A DNA stretch of 64,000 nucleotides from contig NZ_JAUXZE010000031.1 of assembly GCF_030694085.1 (NCBI RefSeq), forward strand, positions 19,573 to 83,572. The letters run 5' to 3'. A program made the position numbers. Source of the stretch: Tabrizicola sp. (lineage in GTDB: Bacteria > Pseudomonadota > Alphaproteobacteria > Rhodobacterales > Rhodobacteraceae). This document shows positions 6,001 to 12,000 of this stretch, one piece after another (the first letter of the stretch is position 1; each line of letters starts with the position of its first letter).

Positions 6001-9000
6001 CTGGGAAGACCATCTTTTACCTTCAACTCATCCATATCTTTCTCACTACTCATGGTCTTCTCCTACGCGAAATTGCCTTACTGGAGTGCCTTCGTCGCAC
6101 CCTGCTTTACAGCGCGCTCGCGCGCTGCATCCGTCGCCCTGCGTTGCCTCTCAGATTTCTGAGCAGCCAACGTCGCCAGGAGCGCTTCCACCTTCTCGCG
6201 CTTGCGATAAATGGCCTCTTGCATGTAGTTGCTGACCGCCACCGTCTGGGCGTAGTCCACCCACAACGCGCGAGACGAAACCTGTGTCAGGTTTTTTTGC
6301 CACTCGGCGTCGATCATGCGCCGCTTGGACTCACGAGCGATCATTTCCGAGGGTGAAACATTGCTGTAGCTCTCGTAGCGCACTCCCGGCAACGAACCAT
6401 ACCCATCACGATCCGAGAGGAATTCGGGGATGGTCTTGCCCACAGCGTTGGCCTGGACGGCGACCGAATTGGCTGCGACAGACTGGGCATCCGTGTATTC
6501 CGCGTTGGGAGGGGTGCCATTGGGCACACTGCCATGCAGAATCTGGTACTGCTCCTTGGTGTTCTTGCCCAACACCGCGTTGTCTTTGGTGGCGTCGCCC
6601 ACGAAGGTGTACGGATCGCACATGTACCCAGCCGGATCGGTGGTGTACGTGCCATCGCTCTTCTGCACGAAATTGTTCTTGGCCTGGAAAACCTGCTCGC
6701 GCTCCATCCCCTTGGTCACAAACACATTGCGCGCGTCCTCGCGCTTCTTCACTGTGTACTCAAGGTGCAAATGCGGGCCGCTGCTGCGACCTGTATTGCC
6801 AGACAAGGCCACGAACTGGCCTGCGCTGACCGTCTTGCCGACAGCAATGTCATTGGCATACCCACTCAAGTGCATGAACCAGACCACATCGCCATTGCCA
6901 TTGCGGATCGCAAGAAAATTACCGGCACCCCCTGGCTGAACGTTCTTGTAAAGCACCGTTCCATCGAACGGCGCGTACAACTGCATACCCACGGCAGCAC
7001 GCAAGTCTTGACCGCCGTGACCGCCGCCCTTGCCGCCGTTGTAATACGAGCGCCATGTGCCAAAGCGGCTTGTAGCCGCCATGCCACCCCCGCCCTTGGT
7101 CGGGTCCATGGCACAAGAGGCAGATGCCGCAAAAGCAGATTGCGGCATCAGGCCTGCTGCACTAATTGCAGCGACAGCGCCGAAGTATGCGAGCCACTTG
7201 GCAGACTTCATCGCCATGCTCACAACCCCACTTTATTCGCAGCGTTCTGACGAGCTGCGGCCTCTCCCGAGGCCTGCGCCTTGCGGGCCTGACCCGACTT
7301 GAGGTTGGCAGCAACTGCGCTTGCCAGTTGCGCCTCCATGCGCTCATATTGACGGTACTGCCGCTCCTGCAGGGTGAGGTCCAGCGCCTTGATCTTGAGC
7401 AGCTCCACCATCACGCCACGGTCATTCTGGGCAGCCATAACGCTGGACCAGCGCTTGTATTCAGGCGTATTGCCTGCGTAGCGCTTCACCTCGGTGGCGT
7501 ATTGCATCGACAGTGGCAGATCGCCGTCACCATGCTCACCATGACCGCCGCTGGTGGTTTCCAGGCGAATCTGGGTCAAGGATGCCAGCGCACTGCTGCG
7601 CACCGCGTCTTTCTGGATTTTTGCCAGTTGATACGTCGCTGCAACCTGGGAAGAGCCGCCACCTTGGGGCACTTCGCCATCGGGCAGGCCAGCGACGAAA
7701 TTGATGAACGAGGTTTTGGCCTTCGTCAGGTCTTCTTCCCCCGCCGTTGGCTTGAACAGCGTCGCCACATTCAGATTGGCCCCTGGCAAACTACCCTGCG
7801 CGGTACACAGGCCAGAACTCGCCTGATCCTGAGTGCAGAAGAGCTGGTTGTGCTCCATCTGCATCTCCTTCTGCGCGGTGATCGGATTGGCAAAGCGGCC
7901 CGGAGCTGCCTGAACGTCTGCGCGCAGCGCAGCCGCAGACGCACCACTCAAGTCAGATTCAGCACGCGCAATCCCCAGCCGCCCCTGGAACACGTAGCAA
8001 GGGGAGTAGCCCTGGCCGAAGTCACCGCCATACTCAAAGCGCGCTTTCTTCACGCGCTCTGCAGTTGCAAGGGCGTTCAGGCCTACTGCTACGTTCTGGT
8101 TTGTGTTGCGCAAGCCATCAGCGATCTGGTTGGCTGCAACCGCCTTCTGCTTGGTCATGATCGCTATCGCGCTAATCAGTCGCTCACTCTGGAACCAGAG
8201 CTGCGCCGACAGCGCAACGTCCATGGCCGTGATCTGCGCCGTCAAGGTGGAGGTCGCAGCCACGAACGCCGGGTACACCCATGTCTCTTGATACTGCGGT
8301 GGGCAAAACGCAGCGAATGAGGTCGCTGCTGTCAGTCCTGCAAGGCCAGTGACCACCCGCCGCTGGGCGCGGGTCATCCCGGTCTTGCCCGCTTGTGCTG
8401 CACGATTCAATCTTGTACGCATACCGCCCCCTTTATGGCCGAACTGCCTGCGCTGCCGTTTGTCGGAGCACAGCGTCGTACTTCTGATCGACCTCGGCCT
8501 GCATGTCATCAGTGCTGCTCAATACGAATGCCGCCAGATTGGCCTCCATCCGCTGGCCTTGCTCGTACTGCTTATGGCGCATCCACACCTCCAGGCCCGA
8601 CATTTTGGTGAGTTCAACGACGAGCCCGCGTGTGGTCTGCGCGGCCATGGACGAAGACCACTGCTGCGCTTCCTTGCCGCCAAAATACTGGTTCACGCGC
8701 AGTTTCATCATCTCGTTGGCAGACTTGCCCCCGTAGGCTTCGCTGCGCGTGTTGTTGGCGTCGATCATTGCCAGGGAGTAAGCAGGAATCGACAACAGGG
8801 AATCCTTGCGATTCTTCTCGAAGGCATAGGCCTGCCCTGCAGGAGACTGACCAGCATCCCGCGTAATCCGCTCATCAGGGGCGCCTACCACGTTCTGGAT
8901 GAACGCCTTGCGAGCCGCTGCCGCATCACTGCCTTGATCCACGCCCGTAAACAGCAGAGCCGCGTTCGTGTCACCGCCAGGAACACTGCCCACGCTGCAA

Positions 9001-12000
9001 AGGCCAGCATTGGCCTCGGCTGGAGTGCAGAACTTAGTCCGATGCAGATTCAGTCGGTTTGACATGGCACCCACGCGCGAATCCACCAGTCGCCCAGGTG
9101 CAACATCGAGCTGAGCCAAGGTCTGCCGCGCCAGTCCTGGCACGTCATCAAAGGCCTTGTCCAGCGATTGATTACGCGCAACAGTGCCACAGGCATCAAA
9201 GCCTTGCCCAGTAGTTGGCGAGTAGTCCAAGTAGGCCTTGACCGTAGCATCGTTGATGCGCTGCGCGCGGACAGCATTCACCAGGGTTTGGCCGGAATTG
9301 CGCGTGGCATCGACCACTTGATTCGCCGACACAGCCTCTTGCTTGGTGGCGATGGCCACAGCCGAAATCAACTGCTCAAACCGCAATTGGCTCTGCGCCA
9401 TGAAAAGCGCCTGGAAGGCGGCGAGCTGGGCTGACACGGTGCCCGTCATCGCCGTAATCATCCCAATGGTCCATGTCTCTGCAGGCCCGAAGCCGTAAAG
9501 AGCGCCATAGGCCGCTCCCGACACCAGCACACCGGCACAGATCGCCCCGGCCGCGATGACCTTCGGGTTACCCAACGCTGCAGCCAGCGAGGCCTGCAGG
9601 ATATGCCGCTTTGCGGCATGTCGATTACGTCTACGCATAGTCACTACTCCAAACGAGTCGAGCGGCGCATGCTCAACTGTCCAATGAAACTTTCCGCCAC
9701 CATCGAACCGATGGCAGTGGCCTGCATGTTCTCAAGCCGCGCTGCTGCGCAGGCCTCGGACTTGCAATTGATGGAATGAGACGCCCTGGTGTCCACCACG
9801 TTGGTGATGTAGTTGTAGCCAGCCAGCTCCACATCAGGCGTCATCGTCTGCTCGCCAAATGGTCCTGAGTAGGAAGCATCCCAGGCCTGCATGCCGTTTG
9901 GTTTCAGCTCGCACAAGCCCTGCTTCGCTTCGGAGACAGAACAGAACAGCTCACGATGCTGGGTCAGCACATCCCGATCCGCTGCAGCACGGGATGGCGT
10001 GGATGCGGCAGCGAAGTTCGACACCAGAACACGAGTGTTCTTCTCCGACTGGTTGAAAACCTCAACCTGCAGGCGACGATCAAACTGCGCCTCGCACTTG
10101 AGCAGCATCGGCTGACCGAGGGACGGGTCGTAGTTTTTCACCACTTCACGTACACGCTCACTGGTCATCACAGCACCCATTGCCACCGCAAGTTGCTTGC
10201 GGGTATTGACCTCAGCGTCGCTGATCTGGTTCGATGCGACAGCACTTTGCTTGACCGCAATTGCCAGGGCGCTCAGCTCACGCTGCATCGTCTGGAACCA
10301 CGACAACACCGAGGCCCAGCCAAAGGCATGGGCCTGGGCTGAGACTCCTACCAGGGAGGCCACCAAGGCCACCTGAGCCAGCTTAGATGCGACGGCCTTT
10401 TTCATGATGCGCGCATCACTGGAAAAGGTTGGTCAGCTTCTGCGTCAGGCTCTGCTGGCTTTGGCTCTGCTGAACCGAACGGCTCGAAAGAGTCGTGCCA
10501 GTGGTGACACAAGCATTCGCGGGGATCGTGCCATCCGCCTGCAGGTTGTTCATCCTGCAGCGGATGGTGTCGATTGCTGCTTGTGCATTGTTCACCGCCG
10601 TCTGCGCAGAAGCCACCGCCTGTTGCTGCGACGTGCAATCCGCGACGCAAACATTGGCCGCTTGCTGGGCTGCGGCCAAGTTCTGGTTGGCAGTCGCAAG
10701 CTGCGACTCAGCAGTGTTCAACTGGTTAATCAGTCCAGAGTACACGGCAAAGTAAGAGCCGGGGCCATTGCCCGTCATCCCGCCAGAACCTGTCCCGGTG
10801 CCCGTTCCAGTCCCTGTACCAGTGCCCGTGCCCGTGCCCGTGCCGGTGCCAGACCCACTTCCGCCCGCAGAATCAGGAACTGTCGCTTGTGGCTGATTGC
10901 CAAACGGTTGCCCGGTGTTGTACGTGCCGGATTGACCGATGTTGTAGTTGGCACCCAGGTTGGGGTCAAGCAACGACATGCCGCCAGAACTATTGAGGTT
11001 CGCGCTCAGGCCGTTCAGTGCACCGATGTATTGGTTCGCTTGCCCGATGGCCTGATTGATAGGCCCAGTCACCATGCCAGTGACCTTGGAAACAGCCGAA
11101 CAAATTTTCTTCTTGGCGTAGGCAATCACGGCCTGTTGAGCCGCAGCGATGATGGTAGCCAACGATGGAATTGCAAAGGACAGGTCCAGCAACGCACTGA
11201 GGCCAGCGAAGCAGTCCGCATTCACATCGAAGAGTTGCTCAACGTTCGGCGAAGCTGATGCCAATTCAAGATGGGCCTTGAGTGACATATTGATCGCATT
11301 GCCCACAGTCCCTTGCTGCGTGCCGCTTGCGCAGGCCTGCGCGTCAGCGCGCATCTGGGCAGTGATGACCGACTCCTGATCGGATAGCAACGTGCTGGTT
11401 GGATCGCTATAAGACCCTCCACCACCGCTAGAAGCAGAGATGGCGTACCCGCCACCCAATGCTGCTACCCCGAGGACAACACCTGCCACGAAGCCCTTGT
11501 TGTAGAAGATTTGCATGAAATCCGACAACAAGCTCGTGCGGGACACCAACACCGGCACTACGTTTTCAGCGCTTCCCATTTTCAACCCCCATGATGGACT
11601 TGATCCGCTCAAGCCTTGAATTAGAAAAAATCTCCCCGATCAGTTGCGCCTTGGTGAAGGCCTCCAGCCTCCGACGCACGACCATCACCAACCGATCCGC
11701 TGGCTTGGCCTCACCAAGCAGCTTTTCTATCTGGTCGGCGAGCACAGGGTTCTGCTCGCTCGCCTTCTTGAGCAGGTAGAGGCATCGGCTGGACCGCATG
11801 CCACCTAGCAGCTCCAAAAACTCATGCGGCGCCACCTGCAGGCTGTCCATCCCCCCAGAGTTCAGGAATGCCTGCAATTGCGTCACAAATGCCTTGACCT
11901 CCAGTGCGTTCGCTGCCTCGTCCTCTTTGAAGTCCACCGCCCACGCATCAACACTGTCGATGCGAAGCAGGAACGCCAAAACCCGCGCGCTTTGGGTACT

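Follow-up and report, generated by a model that had tools for sequence, protein, structure and literature searches.

Three putative TraW/IcmX-class paralogs and an M23 peptidase chimera that shares their rear half in a type IVB conjugation locus of Tabrizicola sp.

Why does a conjugation locus encode three related exported proteins in a row, followed by a wall-cutting enzyme that ends in part of the same fold? The question is raised by four adjacent open reading frames (ORFs), here called A, B, C and the M23 gene, which lie on the minus strand at positions 6078-10405, as placed by an earlier first-pass annotation, in a 64,000-nucleotide stretch of DNA from Tabrizicola sp. (assembly GCF_030694085.1, contig NZ_JAUXZE010000031.1, positions 19,573 to 83,572). 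This whole stretch, hereafter the window, encodes a complete type IVB conjugation system of the mating-pair formation type MPF_I, that is, an IncI/Dot-Icm-like one; in the records examined, A, B and C and their homologues are labeled hypothetical. The reading favored here, to which we assign a probability of about 0.55, is that the four genes encode a multi-paralog tip of the TraW/IcmX class with a docked wall-cutting subunit; the co-assembly of the proteins, their stoichiometry, and the place and time at which the peptidase cuts are what we infer from the comparisons described below.

The relationship among the four proteins is seen at several levels of sensitivity. In BLASTP searches B matches C at 8e-53 with 34% identity across 354 residues, and A matches C at 1e-17 and B at 5e-12, with its front ~165 residues alone being aligned. 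The M23 protein is related through its other end, residues 308-376 matching the C-terminus of C (8e-5) and residues 282-381 that of B (3e-4). With family alignments drawn from 18 related loci, hhalign linked the A family to B at 99.3% (E 1e-20, 198 columns), and the C-terminal 97 residues of the M23 protein to the C family at 97.0% (E 7.9e-11) and to the B family at 97.6% (E 3.6e-12). A longer slice of the M23 protein extended the match with the B family to 181 columns (E 6.6e-12), beginning at Y-M-C202 of the M23 protein opposite F-C206 of B. The same C-terminus gives 0.2% with A, and thus A is without the C-terminal module. A search profile built from B/C-like proteins only, when run against all ORFs of the window, retrieved B (8e-135), C (4e-120), A (8e-27) and the M23 protein (1e-10), with the next best ORF at 0.57, and a search of the whole genome (4.6 Mb) with the family profile led to the same four places only. 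The first-pass annotation had proposed from shared motifs that A, B and C are paralogs, that B, C and the peptidase have a C-terminal domain in common and that A lacks it; these relations are confirmed, and the part shared by the peptidase proves larger than proposed, about half of the fold. The motifs themselves can be recognized, though slightly out of register in places; in protein A, for instance, GQ and C are separated by five residues instead of four.

Protein A carries a putative Sec-type signal peptide. Both the GQ..C motif and the H..FC....GLC loop are present in it, as is the conserved N-terminal helix (SALAIAVKQSAVASNQ), and the protein ends not in the C-terminal helical module but in a Cys-containing tail of its own. 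Proteins B and C are full-length. In B, Cys152, Cys206 and Cys216 are invariant and the signal peptide ends in ..AYGA before LYGFGPAE; in C the mature N-terminus reads FCPPQYQE after ..A, and no lipobox was found, the Cys coming after the AxA site of signal peptidase I. The export signals of A, B and C were judged by inspection (basic residues, a hydrophobic stretch, AxA) and are conserved across the alignments of B and M23 homologues. The motif W-x(9-10)-R-[AG]-L-x2-[DE], together with a closing L-A, marks the rear module in B, C and the product of the fourth gene. Judged by sequence, the locus holds four members of one fold, with A representing its front, B and C its full length, and the M23 protein its rear half. 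The idea that A and the M23 protein make up one split subunit was set aside, since both contain the middle of the fold and loci without the fourth gene still have A.

The layout of the M23 protein is a signal peptide, a LytM-type endopeptidase, and then the rear TraW/IcmX-like half, which ends in a long helix (residues 317-380). Its match to Pfam PF01551 scores 72.2 bits against a cut-off of 28.7 (E 4e-20), and the zinc and catalytic residues are H69, D73, H118, H151 and H153. The pairs H69-x3-D73 and H151-L-H153 are nearly invariant in 32 homologues, being lost in two of them (P0278 and P0279). The catalytic domain is modeled with a predicted local distance difference test (pLDDT) score of ~90, and the top Foldseek matches of the model are ShyA, lysostaphin and LytM (E ~2e-9, root-mean-square deviation 2.4-2.9). 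The domain is thus predicted to be a catalytically intact LytM-type endopeptidase. At the other end, a hidden Markov model (HMM) of the rear module alone matches the C-termini of the Acinetobacter C (4e-7) and B (8e-6) proteins, and the rear part is aligned by hhalign with residues 310-361 of TraW (E 2.7e-4). From its sequence the M23 protein is a fourth paralog in which a peptidase has taken the place of the front half and of the bundle helix at the N-terminus.

The class to which the paralogs belong is indicated by four lines of evidence. The first is the profile link to TraW of the IncI1 plasmids. The C family matches IncI1 TraW in hhalign at 60% (E 8e-5), the B family matches it at E 2.9e-4 with residues 198-278 of B opposite residues 164-259 of TraW, and the narrower profiles align collinearly with the front, the middle and the rear of TraW, with E from 8e-5 to 4e-4. 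An exhaustive family search yielded 538 representatives at 50% identity, and a broad profile of 111 of such sequences matched the IncI1 TraW family at 96.2% (E 2.5e-9, 175 columns). The motif H..[FY]CT....C..G.[LI]PG is common to the C family and IncI1 TraW. A possible second line is Pfam family PF28212, which is precomputed on all 120 IncI1 TraW matches listed and also on P0108, a homologue of C with 46% identity.

The third line is the fold. The AlphaFold2 model of C (pLDDT 68) is all helical, with long N-terminal helices, a middle domain and a 65-residue terminal helix. The rank 1 match of this model in Foldseek is the in-situ DotA-IcmX protochannel 9ngy (chain 9ngy_AP1; E 3.4e-3, 251 columns), the sole match with probability 1.00 among 350,542 PDB chains, the next one having probability 0.16. 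In the published description of IcmX (10.1101/2025.06.23.660953), the signal peptide is followed by an N-terminal helix, from which the central bundle of five helices is made, then by an extended domain and finally by the C-terminal helices. The fourth line is gene order: the genes here run IcmW, U, A, B, C, where U is an additional gene described below, and in four Legionellales-type genomes found through DotA (L039-L042) icmW, a small ORF and an icmX-like ORF lie beside dotA, one of the icmX-like ORFs matching NF038225 (IcmX_IVB). In addition, the family profile search of the window and the whole genome found no other TraW/IcmX-like gene, so that this complete MPF_I gene set has no second candidate for the TraW slot. 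The TraW profile, the fold and the gene order, and possibly PF28212, converge on the TraW/IcmX class for A, B and C. The guess of the first-pass annotation, a tip-type assembly of a type IV secretion system (T4SS) to be checked against TraW and VirB5, is thus partly supported; of the families that it named for profile searches, TraW responded, whereas the ICE PFL_4711-type families and the Pfam VirB5/TrbJ-type domain did not, the latter having no match on A, B or C even at E <= 10.

Various aspects of this assignment can be followed in related loci. The block IcmW-U-A-B-C-M23-D recurs in Pseudomonas, Massilia, Rhodanobacter, Thauera and Acerihabitans, and on p_153kb of Yersinia pseudotuberculosis; in Neisseria the block is conserved and the fourth gene is different. 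Homologues of C are found on Xanthomonas plasmids too, and the C family is detected by tblastn on 157 Acinetobacter plasmids. A Paracidovorax sp. assembly contains a near-identical locus (L004) on a contig of 100 kb. The plasmid collection yielded no near-identical DNA. Across more than 20 plasmids and contigs A, B and C each make up an orthologue group of their own, and in the tree each group spans these hosts and Acinetobacter, with support 100/100 for A, 98/92 for C and 68/35 for B. Orthologues are 42-59% identical and paralogs 29-35%, which argues for an old and maintained division of labor rather than a recent diversifying array. On a distantly related repC-type plasmid of Rhizobiales type (L025:4283-7996, GCA_001043895.1) an M23 protein of 316 aa is followed by paralogs of 254, 336 and 331 aa, and these three cluster together in the tree on long branches; this array may reflect an independent triplication or gene conversion. 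The 757-aa gene directly after these paralogs may be a DotA/TraY candidate.

The fourth gene is an M23 fusion in most loci, and tblastn with its rear half matches 128 plasmids. In P0278 and P0279 the rear module is retained although the zinc ligands of the peptidase are lost. In two loci (L019:5726-6136 and L020:7183-7584) C is followed by a gene for a protein of 133-137 aa, in which a short linker joins the rear module to a signal peptide and there is no enzyme domain. In Neisseria sp. HSC-16F19 (L018:9673-10650) the rear docking module stands behind a different N-domain of ~190 aa, the 'ES...GILQM' motif of which is reminiscent of SLT enzymes; the domain has no Pfam or PDB match, and the SLT reading is a guess. 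Going by its occurrence alone, behind another N-domain, and in company of a peptidase without zinc ligands, the rear module seems to behave as an independent docking unit, and the stand-alone modules and degenerate M23 variants suggest that it has a role of its own.

Enzyme-like insertions are not confined to the fourth gene. A Logan contig (SRR33696114; L026:7001-8884) encodes a C-type paralog of 627 aa with an insert of ~190 residues before the C-terminal helices, and the insert contains the motif 'IYGDSIAWG', typical of SGNH/GDSL hydrolases; this would be a second enzyme graft onto the TraW/IcmX-like fold. Another protein encoded in this locus, of 815 aa, starts with an A-type domain.

The orthologue groups bear on a rival explanation, according to which A, B and C are mutually exclusive alternative tips that widen the recipient range, while the M23 protein is a free hole-puncher whose rear half is a relic of recombination. 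Host range is known to vary by way of tandemly arrayed tip or adhesin genes, and the tandem copies of VirB5 (TrwJ) in the Bartonella Trw system could serve as a model. The plasmids considered here are indeed found in many genera, and the Acinetobacter plasmid pNDM-AP_882 lives without the fourth gene. However, A, B and C are ancient orthologue groups represented one-to-one in every locus, with no recent amplification, and A, always being without the C-terminal helices, is not an equivalent alternative tip. As to the relic, the rear half of the M23 protein is kept at 21-50% identity in 128 plasmids and also exists in the stand-alone secreted form, which indicates that selection maintains it. 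We regard this explanation as quite improbable.

A number of observations weigh against a TraW/IcmX-class tip with a docked peptidase. The curated models, namely Pfam and the NCBIfam models conj_TraW (NF033888) and IcmX_IVB (NF038225), have no match on A, B or C, and an NCBIfam scan of the three proteins gives nothing at E <= 0.01; R64 TraW itself scores 553 bits against NF033888. Searches of PDB sequences with single sequences and three profiles retrieve nothing for A, B and C, and an HMM of B and C scores only 14.5 bits against TraW in HMMER. The fold match with IcmX has a TM-score of 0.26, and the model of C on which it is based has the pLDDT value of 68 given above. The hhalign comparison with four putative IcmX sequences from the Legionellales-type genomes gives 5.9% (E 0.006), which is not significant, and the TraW profile does not reach IcmX in the PDB. 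Finally, two plasmids seem to lack part of the set. In the 13-kb locus of Acinetobacter pittii pNDM-AP_882 (L027), a plasmid of a clinical isolate, a Sno-...-U-A-B-C block is present with an LPD1 gene directly after C, and no M23 or docking-module gene was found; since A, B and C occur there without the fourth gene, the peptidase is probably dispensable for the core machine. In Pseudomonas aeruginosa pHPA0698-3 (L028, 34 kb, typed mobilizable) the DotA/TraY gene and the M23 chimera are ~2 kb apart, and no genes of A, B or C size are annotated in the 17 kb viewed, as judged from annotation only and not by profile search. As no sequence homology with IcmX could be demonstrated, we classify A, B and C as remote TraW family members that are related to IcmX only in structure and position.

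The silence of the curated models, together with the hypothetical status of all database records, could also be taken to mean that A, B and C are non-structural secreted or periplasmic accessories, for example surface exclusion factors or effectors, that happen to lie within the transfer operon. Their neighbors, such as the Sno helicase and LPD1 genes, are of the polyvalent or anti-restriction type, and traY is not among them. The profile link with TraW, the fold link with IcmX and the position near icmW all speak against this suggestion, as does the lack of another TraW/IcmX candidate in an otherwise complete MPF_I set. Moreover, the Rhizobiales-type array directly precedes the DotA/TraY candidate of 757 aa. 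That the proteins are accessories of this kind is therefore very improbable.

If the assignment is correct, the single traW gene of IncI1 would have been replaced in this MPF_I clade by the operon of A, B, C and the M23 chimera. Reviews equate R64 TraW and IcmX with VirB5, and TraY and DotA with VirB6, with each of the two kinds forming a pentamer at the stalk (PMC12624023; PMC12857230), and traW is essential for the transfer of R64 and pCTX-M3 (PMC6112013). Following these reviews, the equivalence of A, B and C to VirB5 would be positional and structural. B and C, and probably A, would build a VirB5-class cap or stalk on the pentamer of the DotA/TraY protein, which is expected to be the base where a pentamer of the TraW/IcmX type would sit. 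A would supply the N-terminal bundle helix and the first approximately two-thirds of the fold, with no C-terminal helices. The M23 rear half would make the contacts made by the C-terminal helices of B and C, either with neighboring subunits or with the top of TraY/DotA, and the peptidase would thereby be held on the axis of the machine. That A has the bundle helix without the C-terminal helices, and the M23 protein the reverse, speaks for separate positions and against redundancy. Nature does have a form of this fold that consists of the rear part only, as Legionella releases an N-terminally truncated IcmX comprising residues ~165-466 (10.1101/312009). In the assembled machine the M23 enzyme would cut peptide cross-links where the stalk or channel crosses the sacculus, and the separate SLT enzyme of the plasmid would cut the glycan strands. 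The logic would be analogous to that of FlgJ, in which a rod cap is joined to a muramidase.

A different fate of the peptidase, as cargo that rides the ejected cap to a recipient or competitor and cuts its wall either for DNA entry or as a weapon, draws on several facts. In the fourth gene the enzyme part can be exchanged or missing, as is typical of accessory payloads, and a C-type paralog of another lineage has the SGNH/GDSL-like insert. The T4SS effectors of Xanthomonas include wall hydrolases, and gp13 of phage phi29 reportedly carries an M23 domain at the tail tip. IcmX and DotA are the sole Dot/Icm proteins in culture supernatants, and DotA-IcmX was proposed to be pushed outward upon activation (10.1101/2025.06.23.660953). 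The plasmid also has its own SLT already for work on the donor side, and the first-pass annotation took this separate SLT as a reason why the M23 enzyme could act on the recipient wall. This last argument does not discriminate between the two sides, since a glycan-cutting SLT and a peptide-cutting M23 enzyme cleave different bonds and can act together in the donor. Besides, the outer membrane of the recipient must be crossed first, and nothing here indicates such crossing; no immunity gene was identified beside the M23 gene; and members that have lost the zinc ligands still keep the protein, which fits a structural role better than that of a toxin. We consider delivery of the peptidase as cargo unlikely.

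A bolder version, which we would call doubtful, describes the cap as a hetero-oligomer of specialized paralogs with an interchangeable enzyme subunit, the armed tip being pushed into the recipient envelope, where it cuts the wall. The enzyme slot would be filled by M23 here, by the SLT-like domain in the Neisseria element, and by the SGNH-type insert in the other lineage. If true, such a tip would work like a phage tail tip, and conjugation would gain an enzyme-assisted penetration step on the recipient side.

The tip with a docked wall-cutting subunit, favored here, can be compared with several known systems. The closest is TraW of the IncI1 plasmids R64 and ColIb-P9 (NF033888, PF28212), likewise a Sec-exported periplasmic protein of ~400 aa in an MPF_I system, which has the histidine- and cysteine-containing loop noted above and the C-terminal helices in common with the present family. 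The differences are that IncI1 has one traW, located between traV and traX-traY, whereas three diverged paralogs and a peptidase chimera follow icmW here, and that neither HMMER nor the curated TraW model can detect the relationship at the low identity between A, B and C and TraW. IcmX of Legionella pneumophila (9ngy; NF038225) has the same succession of signal peptide, N-terminal helix, extended domain and C-terminal helices, and its gene is downstream of icmW and near dotA; according to the reviews it is a VirB5-equivalent pentamer on DotA, an architecture established for Legionella only. In contrast to the present array, IcmX is encoded by a single gene and serves an effector-translocating system, and no enzyme fusion to it is described in the papers searched.

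The VirB5 family of type IVA systems (TrwJ, TrbJ, VirB5) has the same proposed place, as a pentameric tip or stalk on VirB6, and the same helical NH/CH architecture. The tandem TrwJ copies of Bartonella are a precedent for several tip paralogs per locus; here, however, the orthologue groups are ancient, one-to-one and different in domain content, not recent near-copies. In beta- and gamma-proteobacteria, FlgJ has its rod-cap domain fused to the muramidase, which confines the cutting of the wall to the site of penetration, and in some lineages FlgJ is the cap module alone with the enzyme being separate, which parallels the bare module of L019 and L020. FlgJ belongs to the flagellum, its fold is unrelated and its enzyme is a glycosidase, not an M23 endopeptidase, so the likeness is in mechanism only. 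Finally, the hole-punchers of VirB1 type are wall hydrolases encoded in T4SS loci, as the M23 protein is here, but those known are mostly glycan-cutting SLT, CHAP or NlpC enzymes. We know of no description of T4SS hole-punchers as chimeras with a VirB5-class subunit, and a search of the full-text literature for M23 with IcmX and for TraW/VirB5 paralogs in type IVB systems found nothing describing this arrangement. Neither the class of the proteins nor the family of the enzyme is new, but the conserved set of three cap paralogs and the fusion of a wall hydrolase to the rear half of a cap protein appear undescribed.

The DotA-IcmX (VirB6-VirB5) axis was recognized as the gate and conduit of type IVB systems only in 2025, and wall crossing and recipient contact are its open questions. 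Widespread conjugative plasmids, including Acinetobacter NDM plasmids and plasmids of Yersinia, Xanthomonas and Pseudomonas, elaborate this axis, and the array provides a concrete candidate answer to the problem of how the T4SS stalk passes through peptidoglycan. It is also a ready-made genetic system for the assembly of cap subunits, and the assignment gives names to several hundred unannotated protein clusters, those covered by the 538 representatives.

The features of the locus are listed in Table 1. The stops and starts of the A, B, C and M23 genes abut or overlap, as seen from the junction sequences, and no internal promoters or terminators above shuffled controls were found in the A-B-C-M23 stretch, which suggests that the four genes are transcribed together and coupled in translation. 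For C, ATG 8422 is the true start, as indicated by an AGGGGG ribosome-binding site and by the length of its homologues (385-400 aa), and the M23 protein probably starts at ATG 7217.

Table 1. Coordinates of the paralog array, its domains and associated genes in the window.
Feature	Position	Strand	Details
DotA/TraY (VirB6-equivalent)	51692..54496	+	TIGR04346 DotA_TraY 2e-110
DsbG/DsbC-like thiol:disulfide interchange protein	45333..46529	+	NCBIfam PRK11657 2.4e-16; beside dotM in transfer operon
SLT-type lytic transglycosylase (VirB1-like)	21544..22089	-	Pfam SLT 2.9e-7; adjoins coupling-protein gene
IcmW homologue	11566..12072	-	Pfam IcmW 6e-12, NCBIfam IcmW_IVB 2e-8
Gene U	10416..11612	-	398 aa; Gly-Thr repeat, coiled-coil tail, N-terminal hydrophobic segment
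Paralog A	9644..10405	-	253 aa
Paralog B	8433..9644	-	403 aa; start GTG 9644 or ATG 9638
Paralog C	7220..8422	-	400 aa; ATG 8422; listed ORF 7220-8509 is an over-extension
Chimeric M23 protein	6078..7223	-	381 aa as listed; 379 aa if ATG 7217
M23 catalytic domain	6744..7022	-	residues 68-160; Pfam PF01551
TraW/IcmX-like rear half of M23 protein	6081..6626	-	residues ~200-381; core docking module ~285-381
Gene D	4644..6053	-	469 aa; without signal peptide; after M23 gene in most related loci

The conjugation machinery around the array includes the core and channel genes DotI/IcmL, DotH/IcmK, DotG (TrbI-like), TraP, DotC/TraI and DotA/TraY, and the ATPase and coupling genes DotO, the DotL-type coupling protein, DotB, DotM, IcmJ/DotN and IcmW. 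Accessory genes encode the SLT enzyme, an SSB and a DsbG-like protein; an isomerase of the DsbG/DsbC type fits the conserved cysteines of A, B, C, M23 and DotA-type proteins.

IcmW is the first gene of the conserved block of seven genes, and its position is kept in 17 related loci. Gene U, found in 20 related loci, always lies between icmW and A. U and D were used as helical negative controls in the hhalign comparisons. As further paralogs of A, B and C, or as relatives of R64 TraV, TraX or TraT, both were rejected, all values being <=0.2%; for U the comparison covered the families of A, B, C, M23, TraV, TraW and TraX. A was likewise compared with R64 TraV and TraX, with no match. Inside gene U a degenerate 6-bp tandem repeat (window positions 10782-10850) encodes a (Gly-Thr)n run, and the U protein of 398 aa has a counterpart of 399 aa with 94% identity in the Paracidovorax locus L004; the length of the repeat may be variable between loci. 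In L039-L042, all four of the Legionellales-type genomes have an exported small ORF rich in Pro, Gln and Ser (159-194 aa) between icmW and the icmX-like gene; it is placed like U, yet the sequences are unrelated (hhalign 0.2%).

Several minor observations were made in the related loci. Plasmids like pHPA0698-3, of 34-77 kb, occur in Aeromonas. On the Rhizobiales-type plasmid L025 a Peptidase_M15 gene is located upstream of the array, beside traJ. In a metagenome-assembled genome of Burkholderiaceae, a Cas9-like gene of 1160 aa (L019:6318-9797; Pfam HNH_4, RuvC_III and Cas9_a) lies directly downstream of the block formed by A, B, C and the stand-alone module.

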